A stretch of DNA of 26,529 nt from an uncultured Ruminococcus sp. GTDB taxonomy: Bacteria; Bacillota; Clostridia; Oscillospirales; CAG-272. The notes below the pieces were generated by a model, which did no database searches, was not told where the DNA came from, and saw only the letters and a list, made by a program, of their open reading frames with translations. The DNA lies in the NCBI GenBank assembly GCA_902796505.1, contig CADBPA010000182.1, positions 1 through 26,529 on the forward strand. Direction: 5' to 3'. The position numbers and the translations under genes are program-made. Of the stretch, positions 20,280 through 26,451 are shown one piece after another. How positions within the stretch are numbered: the first letter of the stretch is position 1; every line of letters starts with the position of its first letter.

Positions 20280-20310
20280 ACGATTCACCTCAAACTCTTT
20301 TGTTGCTTCT

Positions 20311-20339
20311 ATTTTACCATATCGCGCGGGATAATGCAA
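20311..20339 (-). promoter_or_regulatory. Sigma-A promoter of DUF624-ybaK
   Basis: Minus strand: TTGCAT (20339-20334), 17 bp, extended -10 TGg-TAAAAT (20316-20311). Confidence 0.78.
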
Positions 20340-20389
20340 GCGTGCGGAGAAAAAAATAAGCGTCGATCCTTGATTTTTTCGGAAAAAAG

Positions 20390-20418
20390 ATGACAAAGGC
20401 GAAAAAGTATGCTATAAT
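20390..20418 (+). promoter_or_regulatory. Sigma-A promoter of the GNAT gene
   Basis: ATGACA (20390-20395), 17 bp, extended -10 TGc-TATAAT (20413-20418). Confidence 0.82.
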
Positions 20419-20446
20419 AAAACAGTTTTGCGGAAAGGAGAGCCAT

Positions 20447-21004
20447 ATGACCGAAGACGATCTTCGTATATTCCGCGCCATGCCGCCCCTTCTGACCGAA
20501 CGGCTTGCCCTGCGGCGCATCCTGCCGTCCGATCTTACGGACGTATATGAATACGCGAGCAACCCCGAAACCTCACGCTATCTTCTCTGGGATCCGCATC
20601 CGGATCTTGCGTACACGCGCGCGTATCTTCGCCGCGTGGAGCATTGCTATCGGAACGGCAGCTTTTACGATTTTGCCGTGACGATCCGCGAAAGCGGAAA
20701 GATGATCGGCACCTGCGGCTTTTCCTCCTTTGATCTTCCGAACAACGCAGGCGAGATCGGTTACGTCCTCAACCCGGCGTTTCATCGGCTGGGCTACGGC
20801 AGCGAGGCGACCGCACGCGTGATCGCGTTCGGATTTGAGACGCTCCGTCTGCATCGCATTTACGCGCGGTATTTCCCGGAAAACGCCGCCAGCCGCGCGC
20901 TCGCCGAAAAATGCGGAATGACCTACGAGGGGTGCGCAAAGGGCGCGATCCTCTATCAAGGGCGTTACCGCGATCTCGCCTTCAGCGCGATCACACGCGA
21001 TTAA
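20447..21004 (+). CDS. GNAT acetyltransferase, RimJ/RimL family
   Basis: LLTERLALRRI, MIGTCGF, GEIGYVLNPAFHRLGYGSEA, ENAASRALAEKCGMTYEG. Start at ATG 20447 after GAAAGGAG. Confidence 0.9.
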   Translation: MTEDDLRIFRAMPPLLTERLALRRILPSDLTDVYEYASNPETSRYLLWDPHPDLAYTRAYLRRVEHCYRNGSFYDFAVTIRESGKMIGTCGFSSFDLPNNAGEIGYVLNPAFHRLGYGSEATARVIAFGFETLRLHRIYARYFPENAASRALAEKCGMTYEGCAKGAILYQGRYRDLAFSAITRD

Positions 21005-21029
21005 AACACGCCCGGAATACAAAAAACGC

Positions 21030-21059
21030 TCATATTTTCCCATCGCCTCCGGTATAATG
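21030..21059 (+). promoter_or_regulatory. Internal promoter of the dacF-like gene, sigma-F/G-like
   Basis: TCATA (21030-21034), 15 bp, CGGTATAATG (21050-21059), against the B. subtilis sigma-F consensus GYATA-N15-GGnnAnAHTR (one mismatch in each box). It also contains TATAAT, but with no sigma-A -35. Confidence 0.5.
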
Positions 21060-21085
21060 AAGCAAAACAAACCGGAGGTTTTTCT

Positions 21086-22270
21086 ATGAAAAAAACGATT
21101 GCGCTTGTTCTTACGCTCCTGATGATTTTCGGCGTCGGAATGCCGATTTATGCGGAAGGAGAACAAAAAAGCGAAGCAGAAAAGAGCGAATCTGCCGAAC
21201 AACCCTTTACGGTCGACGCGCGCTCCGCCGTCCTGATGGAGGCGGAAACCGGAAAGATCCTCTTTTCGCAGAACGAAAACGCCGCCTATTCGCCGGCGTC
21301 CGTCACGAAAATCATGACGCTGCTTCTGACGATGGAAGCGCTGGACGGGGGAAAATTCGATCTTGCGACGATGGTCCCGGTTTCGGCGTACGCCGCTTCG
21401 ATGGGCGGCAGTCAGGTCTTTCTCGAAGAGGGAGAATCGCTCTCGGTCGAGGATATGCTCAAATGTACGGTGATCGCCAGCGCAAACGACGCGGCGGTCG
21501 CGCTTGCCGAATTCGTTTCGGGAAGCGAGGAAGGTTTTGTCGCCGATATGAACCGCCGCGCCGCCGAACTCGGCATGAAGGATTCGCATTTTGAGAATGC
21601 GACCGGGCTCGACGATACGACCGAAAATCACGTCACCTCGGCAATGGATATCGCCCTGATGTCCCGCGCGCTTCTTTCGCATCCGAAGATCACCGAATAC
21701 GCCTCCATCTGGCAGGACACGATCCGCGACGGTGAATTTACCCTGACGAACACCAACCGCCTCGTTCGCTTTTACAGCGGCTGCAACGGCCTGAAAACCG
21801 GATCGACCGACCGCGCCGGATTCTGCATGAGCGCCGCCGCCAAGCGCGACGGGATGCAGCTGATCGCGGTCGTGATGGGCGCGCAGACGCGGGATGAACG
21901 CAACGCGATCGCAAAAAAACTGCTCGATTACGGTTTCTCGAAATATTCGCTTTATGAAACCCCGGAGGAATTTCTCGAATACCTCCCGGTCACCGGCGGA
22001 AAAGCGAGCCGCACCGCTCTGGTCGCAAAGCCTTTTACGGCGCTCGTCAGCAGAGGCGAGGCGGCAGGCGTGGAGAAGCGGTATTCGATCCCCGAATCGG
22101 TCGCGGCGCCGGTCAGAGCAGGGCAGGCGGTCGGAAAGATCGAATTTTACTCCGGGGAGAAAAAGATCGGCGAATGCGAGGTCTGCGCGAAGGACGGCGT
22201 GGATCGGATCGACTTTGCCGAGGTCGTCTTCCGCCTCATCGGCGTGATCCTCGGAAAAAATGCCGAATAA
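21086..22270 (+). CDS. dacF: D-alanyl-D-alanine carboxypeptidase, peptidase S11 (DacF-like)
   Basis: Signal peptide, SxxK (SPASVTK), SxN (ASAND), KTG motif, TNTNRLVRFY, C-terminal amphipathic helix. DacF versus other S11 paralogs is judged by resemblance only. Confidence 0.8.
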   Translation: MKKTIALVLTLLMIFGVGMPIYAEGEQKSEAEKSESAEQPFTVDARSAVLMEAETGKILFSQNENAAYSPASVTKIMTLLLTMEALDGGKFDLATMVPVSAYAASMGGSQVFLEEGESLSVEDMLKCTVIASANDAAVALAEFVSGSEEGFVADMNRRAAELGMKDSHFENATGLDDTTENHVTSAMDIALMSRALLSHPKITEYASIWQDTIRDGEFTLTNTNRLVRFYSGCNGLKTGSTDRAGFCMSAAAKRDGMQLIAVVMGAQTRDERNAIAKKLLDYGFSKYSLYETPEEFLEYLPVTGGKASRTALVAKPFTALVSRGEAAGVEKRYSIPESVAAPVRAGQAVGKIEFYSGEKKIGECEVCAKDGVDRIDFAEVVFRLIGVILGKNAE

Positions 22271-22295
22271 AATCCGAAGAAAATCAGATAGATAC

Positions 22296-22324
22296 TTGCA
22301 ATACGCAGAAAAATCGTGTATAAT
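22296..22324 (+). promoter_or_regulatory. Sigma-A promoter of pgi
   Basis: TTGCAA (22296-22301), 17 bp, TATAAT (22319-22324). Confidence 0.85.
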
Positions 22325-22357
22325 AGTATAAAATTAAATCTTTTAAGAGGTTCTTTT

Positions 22358-23701
22358 ATGAGCATCAGACTGGACACCAGATTTACCGAACGATTCATCA
22401 GCGGGGAAGAGATCGCCGCGATCCGCCCGGAAGCCGAAGCCGCTTTCCAAACGCTCGCCGCTCGCACCGGAGCGGGTGCCGACTATCTCGGATGGATCGA
22501 TCTTCCCGAAAACTATGACAAAGAGGAATTTGCCCGCATCAAAGCCGCGGCGCAGAAGATCCGCAAGAACAGCGAGATCCTGATCGTCATCGGCATCGGC
22601 GGCTCTTATCTCGGCGCGAGAGCGGCGATCGAATTCGTCAAGAGTCCGCTTTACAACAATCTGAAAAAGGATACCCCGGACATCTATTTTGCCGGCAATA
22701 ATATCTCTCCCACCGCGCTGACCGAGATCATCTCGATCTGCGAGGGGCGCGATTTCTCGGTCAACGTCATTTCCAAGTCCGGAACGACAACCGAGCCCGC
22801 CATCGCCTTCCGCGTGTTCAAACAGATGCTGATCGACCGTTACGGCGTCGAGGGCGCGAAAGAGCGCATCTTCGTCACGACCGACCGCGCGAAGGGGACG
22901 CTCAAGAAATTCTCGGATGAGGCCGGATACGAAACCTTCGTCGTTCCCGACGACGTCGGAGGAAGATATTCGGTGCTGACCGCCGTCGGTCTGCTTCCGA
23001 TCGCCTGCGCCGGGATCGATATCGACGCCATGATGCAGGGCGCAAACGACGCAAGAAAGACCTATACTTCGCCGGATCCTTCCGAAAACGACGCGGTCCT
23101 GTACGCCTCGCTGCGCAATATTCTGCTCCGCAAGGGCAAATGCTGCGAGATCCTCGTCGGTTATGAGCCGTATATGCTGATGCTCAACGAATGGTGGAAA
23201 CAGCTTTACGGCGAAAGCGAAGGGAAGAACAACAAGGGCATTCTCCCCGATTCGGTCGTTTTCTCGACCGATCTGCATTCGCTCGGCCAGTACATTCAGG
23301 AGGGGCAGAGGACGATCTTTGAGACGGTCGTTTCGGTCAAAGATCCCGGCGCGCGCTTCGTCATCCCCGACGATCCCGCAAATGTGGACGGCCTGAACTT
23401 CATTGCCGGCCGCGAGCTGGATTACGTGAACAAGACCGCGATGCTCGCCACGCTGATCGCCCACAACGACGGCGGCGTTCCGAATATCCGTATCGAGCTT
23501 GACGACAGAACCGCCTACTCCTTCGGCTATCTCGTTTACTTCTTTGAGCTTGCCTGCGCGGTTTCCGGCTATATTCTCGGCGTCAATCCCTTCGATCAGC
23601 CGGGCGTCGAGGCATACAAGAAGAATATGTTCGCGCTCCTCGGCAAGCCGGGATACGAAGAATCGGGCGAAAAACTCCGCGCAAGGATCGAAAAAGCGTG
23701 A
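22358..23701 (+). CDS. pgi: Glucose-6-phosphate isomerase
   Basis: [61 protein letters not shown]. Start at ATG 22358 (AAGAGG SD). Confidence 0.98.
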
Positions 23702-25319: not shown

Positions 25320-26102
25320 TCATTCTTTTTTAAAATTCTGCCGCATGATCTCATAGCCGAACATCGTGACGGCGGAAGCGGCGGACAGAGAGGCTCCGAA
25401 GTCGCGCGCATAGGGGATGCGGACGCGAAGATCGCAGAGGTCGAGCAGTTCGCGCGAGATCCCGCGCCGCTCGCCGCCGGCGATCAGAAGAAGAGGCTTT
25501 TTCAGTTCGGTCGCACCGAGCAGATCGTCGGTGCGCTCATCGGCGCAAAGAATGCGATACCCCCTTGCGCGGAAAAGTTTTGCCGCCGCGGTCGGCTCGG
25601 CGGTGTAGGCGGGGAGCAGCTCGGACGCACCGGCGGAACTGCGGCAAACGACGCCGGCGGCGCTGAACCAGTTACGCCCCGGAAGGATCACGCCGTCCAC
25701 GCCGCAGGCATAAAGCGAGCGGAGCGCGTAACCGAAGTTGTAGGGATCTTCGATCCCTTGGATCAAAGCAAAGAAACCGTTTTCGGGAAGGGAAGTCGTA
25801 TCCTCAAGCGTCGGGATGGTGCGCTTTCCCGCGATCGCGATCAGACCGCCGTTTGACGTTCCGAGCGTCAGTTTTTCGATTTCCTCAGCGCCGCATTCTC
25901 GCAAAGAAAATCTGTATTTTTGCGAAACTGCCCTTAAATATCCGATCTCTTTTATATTTTTTTGTTTTTTCGCTTCGTCATAAAGAACGCTTTCGATCCT
26001 TCTGTCGGAGATGCCGCGGTCGATGGCGGCGATCAGCGCCCGGATCGAAGTCATTCCTTCGAAGACGGTGGAATTCTGAAATTTGATTTCTTCTTTTTGC
26101 AT
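25320..26102 (-). CDS. SpoU/TrmH-family (RlmB-like) RNA 2'-O-methyltransferase
   Basis: IEDPYNFGYALRS (motif 1), AGGERRGIS (motif 2), RIPY...SLSAASA (motif 3), RlmB-like N-terminal domain (FEGMTSIRALI, GTSNGGLIA). Start set at ATG 26102. Confidence 0.88.
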   Translation of the reverse strand: MQKEEIKFQNSTVFEGMTSIRALIAAIDRGISDRRIESVLYDEAKKQKNIKEIGYLRAVSQKYRFSLRECGAEEIEKLTLGTSNGGLIAIAGKRTIPTLEDTTSLPENGFFALIQGIEDPYNFGYALRSLYACGVDGVILPGRNWFSAAGVVCRSSAGASELLPAYTAEPTAAAKLFRARGYRILCADERTDDLLGATELKKPLLLIAGGERRGISRELLDLCDLRVRIPYARDFGASLSAASAVTMFGYEIMRQNFKKE

Positions 26103-26127
26103 TTTCGGAAGATGCCTTTCATATAGT
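26099..26127 (+). promoter_or_regulatory. Sigma-E-type promoter of spoIIID
   Basis: GCATTTT (26099-26105), 14 bp, CATATAGT (26120-26127), against the sigma-E pattern (T/G)CATATT-N14-CATAnAnT. spoIIID is sigma-E-dependent in B. subtilis and C. difficile. Confidence 0.7.
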
Positions 26128-26187: not shown

Positions 26188-26451
26188 GTGAAGAAGATTT
26201 ATCGTGAGCGGTGCGAGGAGATCGCGGGATACGTTCTGGAAAACGGGGCGACCGTCCGATCCGCCGCTCAATACTTCGGGATCAGCAAAAGCACGGTACA
26301 TAAAGATCTCACCGAGAAGCTCGAACGTCTGAATTTCGGGCTTTACGAGGAAGTCAAGAAAGTTCTGGATAAAAACAAGGCGGAACGCCATCTGCGCGGC
26401 GGAGAAGCCACGCGGCGGAAATATCTTCGTCGAAAGGAGCATCCGGGCTGA
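26188..26451 (+). CDS. spoIIID: Stage III sporulation transcriptional regulator SpoIIID
   Basis: ATVRSAAQYFGISKSTVHKDLTEKL and NKAERHLRGGEATRRKY signatures; GTG start after GAAGGAG; 87 aa. Confidence 0.96.
   Translation: MKKIYRERCEEIAGYVLENGATVRSAAQYFGISKSTVHKDLTEKLERLNFGLYEEVKKVLDKNKAERHLRGGEATRRKYLRRKEHPG

Follow-up and report, generated by a model that had tools for sequence, protein, structure and literature searches.

A hairpin (21045–21079) followed directly by a T-run (21079–21085) was identified immediately upstream of a dacF-like carboxypeptidase gene (dac) in a 26,529-nt stretch of DNA (the whole stretch is referred to as the window; assembly GCA_902796505.1, contig CADBPA010000182.1) from an uncultured Ruminococcus sp., and this unit would serve as an insulator of dac against vegetative read-through from the preceding GNAT acetyltransferase gene (rough probability 0.6). 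The host genome was a 1.78-Mb metagenome-assembled genome with 57.7% GC and 94% completeness. The 3' arm of the hairpin held the Shine–Dalgarno (SD) sequence of dac, the 5' arm (anti-SD) overlapped the spacer of a sporulation-type promoter, and the same layout was found at a class A penicillin-binding protein (PBP) gene and a CwlD-like amidase gene (cwlD) of this genome (see below). The parts of the locus were as follows:

20390–20418, plus strand: sigma-A-type promoter of the GNAT gene (ATGACA, 17 nt, TG-n-TATAAT; 11/12 matches plus TG extension in the promoter scan)
20447–21004, plus strand: GNAT acetyltransferase gene, 185 aa, RimJ/RimL-like (Pfam Acetyltransf_3, E 4.5e-33)
21030–21036, plus strand: -35 element of the sporulation-type promoter, TCATATT (xxATA element kept among dac/cwlD orthologs)
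21045–21053, plus strand: hairpin 5' arm (anti-SD), GCCTCCGGT (fold and inverted repeat; covers the spacer end and the first -10 base)
21053–21058, plus strand: -10 element TATAAT in the hairpin loop (sequence and ortholog comparison; the cwlD covariance model aligns across the element)
21064–21066, plus strand: predicted transcription start of the internal promoter (promoter geometry only, 6–8 nt past the -10; in the loop, 3' of the 5' arm)
21071–21079, plus strand: hairpin 3' arm, ACCGGAGGT (fold and inverted repeat; holds the SD GGAGG, 21074–21078)
21079–21085, plus strand: T-run TTTTTCT between stem and ATG, forming an intrinsic-terminator-like unit with the stem
21086–22270, plus strand: S11 D-alanyl-D-alanine carboxypeptidase gene, dacF-like, 394 aa, with signal peptide (Pfam Peptidase_S11, E 2.9e-72, plus PBP5_C)

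In the proposed mechanism, RNA started at the GNAT promoter would carry both arms, the stem would form as RNA polymerase reaches the U-run, and a fraction of the GNAT transcripts would end a few bases before the dac ATG, the 17-nt loop being proposed to make this terminator leaky. The RNA reading through would keep its SD buried in the 9-bp stem and would be poorly translated. The internal promoter (TCATA, N18, TATAAT), whose spacer overlaps the 5' arm and whose -10 lies within the loop, would start transcription near 21065, and the resulting RNA, lacking the 5' arm, would be neither terminated nor SD-masked and would thus be translated. We infer the start position, the termination, and the translational effect in this scheme, alongside a structure, a statistical standing, a recurrence, and an arm covariation that were observed directly.

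The hairpin was recognized as a perfect 8-nt inverted repeat, CCTCCGGT (21046–53) and ACCGGAGG (21071–78), with 17 nt between the arms; RNAfold extended it to a 9-bp stem (21045–21053 paired with 21071–21079) closing a 17-nt loop, giving an element of 35 bases. Of the nine pairs, one was G-U and the closing one U-A; the seven core pairs were G-C, C-G, or U-A, and the stem had six G-C pairs overall. The 56-nt segment 21040–21095 had a folding energy of -15.2 kcal/mol (z = -3.72; equally stable shuffles: 0/200), while a 46-nt RNA starting at 21065 displayed no significant structure (-5.4 kcal/mol, z +0.17); a comparison of this kind between long and short RNAs had been called for in the preliminary description of the locus, and its outcome agreed with the one expected there. 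That description had placed CCTCCGG at 21046–21052, CCGGAGG at 21072–21078, TATAAT between the arms, and TCATA at 21030–21034, with the SD GGAGG ending 7 nt before the ATG at 21086, and all these positions were correct. The SD (21074–21078) lay entirely within the 3' arm (21071–21079), as is expected of transcript-specific occlusion of a ribosome-binding site (RBS). The Rfam 15 covariance models gave no match with E <= 1 over 20300–22400.

The GNAT gene was on the same strand as dac, its stop codon lay 41 nt 5' of the hairpin 5' arm, and the GNAT–dac gap was 81 nt. Co-directional upstream transcription was indicated at the sequence level by the 11/12 sigma-A promoter of the GNAT gene, and the terminator scan found no terminator-like site other than the hairpin unit itself within 21004–21045; the GNAT promoter is a plausible source of transcription running toward dac. 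The preliminary description had stated that no terminator separated the GNAT gene from dacF, and this did not hold as stated, because the hairpin followed directly by TTTTTCT is itself terminator-like and its cwlD/PBP equivalents resembled intrinsic terminators. The dac unit had the stem expected of such a terminator (a GC-rich 9-bp stem followed by UUUUUCU), and its T-run was kept in the ortholog L006. A GNAT ortholog was located upstream of dac in eight genomes, most of which fell into two groups: (i) three (L001, L006, and L012) with the anti-SD hairpin and no other terminator and (ii) three (L015, L017, and L018) with a conventional hairpin plus T-run ending at the -35 element and without the anti-SD hairpin, the terminators of L015 and L017 being flagged by the scan and that of L018 read by eye. 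The dac orthologs with a divergent upstream gene were mostly without the hairpin. This hairpin/terminator pattern fits an element dealing with RNA arriving from upstream.

SD helices were then counted at 1205 SD-bearing starts of open reading frames (ORFs) of this genome, a helix being defined as at least eight contiguous Watson–Crick pairs between the SD and a segment at most 40 nt upstream, and 12/1205 starts (1.0%) had one, dac among them. Two further of these 12 strongest helices shared the dac layout, and a third composite element was found at a lipoprotein gene:

C5:3302–3364, plus strand: composite element of the class A PBP gene, same layout as dac
C43:4211–4275, minus strand: composite element of the CwlD-like amidase gene, same layout as dac
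C15:2080–2177, minus strand: composite element of a lipoprotein gene, with 16-bp arms, T6, and then ATG

The PBP harbored Transgly plus Transpeptidase domains and the CwlD-like protein an Amidase_3 domain (all Pfam). Both genes displayed the order xCATA, N18, -10-like hexamer, with the 5' arm formed by the spacer end abutting the -10, the SD in the 3' arm, and then the T-run and the ATG; the arms were (i) ATCCTCCCC/GGGGAGGAT with a 16-nt loop at the PBP gene and (ii) AGCCTCCGT/ACGGAGGCT with an 18-nt loop at cwlD, and the two folds had z scores of -5.2 and -4.8, respectively. The bases flanking CCTCC varied among dac, PBP, and cwlD (GG, CC, and GT), and those flanking GGAGG varied complementarily. 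Both genes also had co-directional neighbors: the PBP gene was located directly behind ecfT–truA, and the cwlD -35 lay just past the stop codon of a co-directional ORF. The same composite was seen at the loci L037 and L038, and smaller look-alikes were seen upstream of a C91 gene (164-aa lipoprotein) and a C197 gene (141 aa).

The sister elements also bore on the terminator character of the unit. SD–ATG spacers with at least five T were present at 3.8% of the genes in this genome and were enriched at SD-hairpin genes (5/23 versus 40/1182; Fisher p 0.0012); among the orthologs, T-rich spacers were found at 17/26 cwlD, 19/28 PBP, and 3/17 dac genes. Many cwlD hairpins had 13–20-bp stems and 3–8-nt loops, often with A-run and T-run flanks, and the cwlD/PBP ortholog hairpins, taken together, had loops of 3–13 nt plus T-runs, resembling ordinary intrinsic terminators. 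One PBP-leader hairpin (L072:1408–1483) reached 32.9 and 28.2 bits with the covariance model (see below) on its two strands; the A-run and T-run flanking its stem account for this and give it the look of a bidirectional terminator. Such a bidirectional role was rejected for dac, where both neighbors are plus-strand genes and the minus-strand version lacks a U-run. The cwlD ortholog L048 had, about 60 nt before its GTG, an 11-bp perfect hairpin (TCTCCATATAG/CTATATGGAGA) plus T-run and then a second SD GGAGG; it is this second SD that serves the GTG start, the GGAG of the hairpin itself not being the SD in use.

The sequence comparison was extended to orthologs from the same genus (17 dac, 26 cwlD, and 28 PBP; proteins 45–61% identical). 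The promoter arrangement, xxATA located 18 nt upstream of TATAnT, was present in essentially all 17 dac orthologs and about 20/26 cwlD orthologs, and the cwlD -10 (mostly TATAGT) sat within the 5' arm. The hairpin was kept with sequence changes on both sides in nearly all cwlD leaders and about 15 PBP leaders, and the SD itself shifted together with its anti-SD partner in these leaders (GGAGG, GGGGG, and GAGAGG). Among the dac orthologs, the anti-SD hairpin was clear in L001 (the window), L002, L006, L010, and L012, while L009 and L016 had a moderate one; L006 (about 56–59% protein identity) retained the arms CCTCCGG/CCGGAGG as well as the T-run, its closing pair being A-U in place of U-A, and in other dac orthologs the flank preceding the SD core and the flank following the anti-SD core changed jointly (CCGG, C-TG, CTTTG, and TTTT). 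The covariation of arms that the preliminary description had looked to at orthologous dacF genes was thereby seen in about 5–7 of the 17 dac genes, and also in most cwlD and PBP orthologs.

This covariation was quantified by duplex formation, in which the 5' segment of each leader was paired with its own 3' segment or with the 3' segments of other orthologs. The cognate duplexes were stronger than the non-cognate ones for cwlD (-22.6 versus -13.3 kcal/mol), PBP (-21.6 versus -11.4), and dac (-13.7 versus -9.6), with permutation p <= 1e-4 in each of the three, and the control genes (n = 304) had a mean cognate–noncognate difference of -1.0 (standard deviation 4.9). A 16-pair helix, specified by hand on a plain, unoptimised MAFFT alignment of 20 cwlD leaders, was 78.8% paired versus 39–54% for slid partners, a percentage biased upward because the helix was the best diagonal of the same alignment; the double changes at 10/16 pairs and the covariation score (0.333 versus 0.224 ± 0.019; reached in 0/500 shuffles) were less affected. 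RNAalifold, applied to MAFFT-aligned cwlD, PBP, and dac leaders, returned no structure, because variable loops misaligned the 3' arms. A covariance model built from cwlD leaders only had cwlD itself as its best match in the 1.78-Mb genome and the dac site (21024–21088) as its second (37.0 bits, E 5.7e-5), the training set including the own-genome cwlD leader, a sequence similar to the dac site; the PBP site came after dac at 18.8 bits, and L006 was matched at 21 bits.

Several observations weighed against the insulator interpretation. As to the terminator, the 17-nt loop of dac was outside the usual range of intrinsic terminators (typically 3–8 nt), the terminator consensus scan made no call at the dac hairpin, and a T-run of at least four was present in only two dac orthologs (L001 and L006), L002 having at least five scattered T. 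As to conservation, the hairpin was found in only about 5–7/17 dac orthologs of the genus, more than half being without a convincing one. As to context, two of the eight GNAT–dac genomes (L004 and L100) had neither hairpin nor terminator, and L002 had the hairpin in spite of a divergent upstream gene. The single metatranscriptome that matched this DNA (bovine gut, at 5% of the sampled words) yielded one 209-nt contig inside dac and none at the junction, and the dac -10 was also a perfect sigma-A TATAAT. As to chance, dinucleotide shuffles of the upstream segments gave 4.8 ± 1.7 SD helices of at least eight pairs, about 40% of the observed 12, and the dac element ranked at about the 11th percentile of the 304 control genes by duplex energy. 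The genome-wide excess of SD helices is real, a single case carries a substantial chance component, and to meet one such helix among the roughly 22 genes of the window is only mildly unusual; the dac helix by itself could not carry the interpretation, the weight of which rests on conservation and recurrence.

The explanation given in the preliminary description, a purely translational gate in which the hairpin only masks the SD and the T-run is an A/U-rich spacer with no termination, appears doubtful. It agrees with the atypical loop and the silent terminator scan at dac, with the translational nature of the sigG and T4 precedents (see below), and with dac orthologs that had a strong anti-SD hairpin and no T-run [L010 (16-bp arms, -17.5 kcal/mol), L012, and L009], the last of which argue that SD masking was selected in its own right. 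A mere spacer does not account for the T-rich stretches being rare in the genome yet present at 65–68% of the cwlD/PBP orthologs and enriched at its SD-hairpin genes, for the many sister hairpins that were indistinguishable from canonical terminators by their short loops and A/T-tract flanks (one scoring on both strands), or for L048, in which hairpin and T-run preceded the SD really used; where T-runs and terminator-like sister elements are present, they point to termination as a part of the function. Chance complementarity at dac, a C-rich spacer happening to match the SD without any function, is distinctly improbable: the shuffle yield and the many dac orthologs without a convincing hairpin (two GNAT–dac genomes having nothing at all) leave room for it, but L006 kept both arms and the T-run at an identity where an unconstrained spacer should have diverged, the SD-flank and anti-SD-flank bases changed jointly with a significant cognate test, a covariance model from a different gene family matched the dac site, and the hairpin and the canonical terminator were mutually exclusive in the eight GNAT–dac genomes.

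It is very improbable that transcription starts upstream of 21045, which would make the hairpin part of the sporulation mRNA as an attenuator or a translational switch opened by a sporulation-specific factor, helicase, or small RNA. The start was predicted from geometry only, and in distant PBP orthologs an SD-like GAGG was separated from the ATG by a GC hairpin plus T-run, possibly a leader attenuator; nevertheless, in all three gene families (dac, PBP, and cwlD) the conserved -35/N18/-10 arrangement had its -10 no further upstream than the 5' arm, and no alternative anti-terminator fold, ligand-type structure, or Rfam match was seen. These distant PBP orthologs (L082, L086, L087, L089, L093, and L095) had another leader type about 70 nt upstream of the ATG, composed of a small hairpin with a CATACT-type -10, the SD-like GAGG, and a strong GC hairpin plus T-run abutting the ATG; their SD lay about 30–35 nt from the start codon, and the leader could be an attenuator or a hairpin bringing SD and ATG together. 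An inverted repeat acting in DNA, as the operator of a dimeric regulator flanking the -10 and the start, was rejected as extremely improbable: the repeat does bracket the -10, a typical repressor position, but the arm spacing ranged from 3 to more than 40 nt, and the arms differed freely between genes and species yet stayed complementary, which is the signature of a nucleic-acid helix and not of a protein site. The insulator interpretation retains from the preliminary description the core logic of a 5' arm upstream of the predicted start, now joined by comparative evidence; its claims on the terminator, on sigma-F, and on the name dacF did not stand as stated (for the latter two, see below).

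Phage T4 genes e, soc, and 49 have a late promoter within an RBS-sequestering hairpin. The same T4-type arrangement was described for I-TevI, I-TevII, I-TevIII, segB, and Aeh1 mobE, whose local transcripts, like those proposed for dac, are without the 5' part of the hairpin, the T4 early/middle read-through RNA having its SD sequestered (PMC2988022). The T4 genes differ from dac in serving phage temporal control through a late promoter, with no U-run or terminator role and no cellular developmental programme. In Bacillus subtilis, according to PMC5942855 (which cites Sun et al. 1991 and Masuda et al. for the sigG hairpin), an RBS hairpin forms at sigG only on spoIIGA–sigE read-through RNA and blocks translation, while the own forespore promoter of sigG starts within the hairpin region and gives an mRNA that cannot form the hairpin. 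The dac gene shares with sigG the position of a sporulation gene behind a co-directional, earlier-expressed unit and an RBS hairpin predicted to be restricted to read-through RNA; it differs in (i) its 9-bp stem followed by a U-run, the sigG stem exceeding 20 bp and being described as translational only, (ii) its 5' arm being the promoter spacer, and (iii) the recurrence of its design at several unrelated spore-wall genes, documented by covariation and not by experiment. With canonical intrinsic (Rho-independent) terminators, the dac unit shared the GC-rich stem, the immediate U-run, and the location downstream of a stop codon, and the cwlD/PBP sisters were alike to them in their 13–20-bp stems, 3–13-nt loops, and A/T-tract flanks; unlike them, dac had a 17-nt loop, and the stems held the SD of the next gene with its -10 in the loop or 5' arm. 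The principle of transcript-specific SD masking is thus established from B. subtilis sigG and T4-type phages, and the U-run overlay, the 5' arm formed by spacer or -10, the recurrence at spore-wall genes, and the covariation across a genus set the present elements apart.

The internal promoter had been assigned to sigma-F in the preliminary description, an assignment that could not be upheld as stated. Its site (TCATA, N15, CGGTATAATG) matched about 4/7 specified -10 positions of the sigma-F consensus (GCATR/GTATA, 14–15 nt, GGnRAnAnTW), the fit being 4/6 for sigma-G, 5/8 for sigma-E, and 6/6 for sigma-A at the -10; the own-genome sigG, spoIIR, and gpr promoters fitted sigma-F at 6/7 with a clear GG (GG-n-R-A-n-A-n-T), and spoIVA was unclear in this marker-gene calibration of sigma types, which worked only partly. 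[quoted passage not shown] In the dac site (TCATA, N15, cGGTATAATG) the upstream G, common among dac orthologs, was present and the downstream A lacking, and no consensus fitted well. The spoIIID gene (26188–26451; TIGR02844, above the curated cut-off) had a sigma-E-like promoter at about 26099–26127 (GCATTTT, N14, CATATAGT), and its -10 was shared by most cwlD orthologs, including the own-genome twin of the dac element. A position weight matrix trained on dac plus cwlD ortholog promoters had spoIIID as its top match, and the promoter motif thus does not discriminate sigma-E from sigma-F or sigma-G; a forespore-promoter regular expression was unspecific, also matching dnaK and spoVG. The promoter comparisons support a sporulation-type promoter at dac, with sigma-F as one possibility, and more than one sporulation sigma factor appears to act on promoters of this hairpin design.

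The name dacF used in the preliminary description was likewise too definite. The window gene encoded an S11 carboxypeptidase with the PBP5 C-terminal domain, as dacF does, and it was flanked by GNAT and pgi instead of spoIIAA–spoIIAB–sigF, the operon that dacF precedes in B. subtilis, which was located here on contig C161. A second S11 paralog (36% identity) was found on C213 in the order scpA–scpB–membrane protein–dac–rluB. An order scpA–scpB–x–dac–rluB is the dacB neighborhood in B. subtilis, and the dac of the window would thus be the non-dacB copy; the name rests only on this synteny and on the promoter type, and dacF-like is a reasonable but unproven designation. Sporulation genes present in the genome were spo0A, spoIIAA–AB–sigF, sigG, spoIIR, gpr, spoIIID, and spoIVA; a whole-genome search gave no alpha/beta-type small acid-soluble spore protein (PF00269) and no SpoIID (TIGR02870), an absence not established at 94% genome completeness.

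A wider interpretation, for which we see about an even chance, would make the design systematic in this genus of uncultured Clostridia from the ruminant gut, and probably more widely in its order: the sporulation promoters of spore-wall enzymes (the dacF-like carboxypeptidase, the class A PBP, the CwlD-like amidase, and some lipoproteins) would regularly be housed within the preceding gene's terminator, giving an approximately 60-nt composite of terminator, translational lock, promoter, and RBS; mother-cell as well as forespore sigma factors appear to be represented among these promoters. If so, developmental genes would be doubly insulated from vegetative read-through. Spore-peptidoglycan remodelling enzymes are plausibly harmful when made during growth, space for a separate terminator, promoter, and ribosome-binding site is scarce in compact genomes, and one overlaid element would meet both needs in this lineage. 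The covariation in three gene families would then be comparative evidence of selected transcript-specific SD masking in a cellular developmental programme, such masking being so far known from single cases, e.g., B. subtilis sigG and phage T4. The arrangement would also caution that an absent terminator between co-directional genes does not mean co-expression, and it would offer a natural template for compact insulator parts.

Downstream of dac, the gene pgi (ATG at 22358; named by NCBIfam PRK14097, E 1.8e-202) had its own promoter:

22296–22324, plus strand: sigma-A-type promoter of pgi (TTGCAA, 17 nt, TATAAT)

The interval that follows the dac stop codon (22271–22357) showed no terminator-like structure ahead of the pgi promoter, and the dac–pgi gene order was kept across the genus and beyond. 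The pgi SD–ATG spacer was likewise T-rich (TTCTTTT), without a hairpin. Elsewhere in the genome, sigma-A-type promoters (TTGxxx, 17 nt, TATAAT) on C233, C165, C253, C181, and C206 had a pyrimidine tract in the spacer complementary to the downstream SD, for example TTCTCCC/GGGAGAA upstream of a 294-aa gene on C233, and given these sigma-A-type examples, the SD-masking design may extend beyond sporulation genes.

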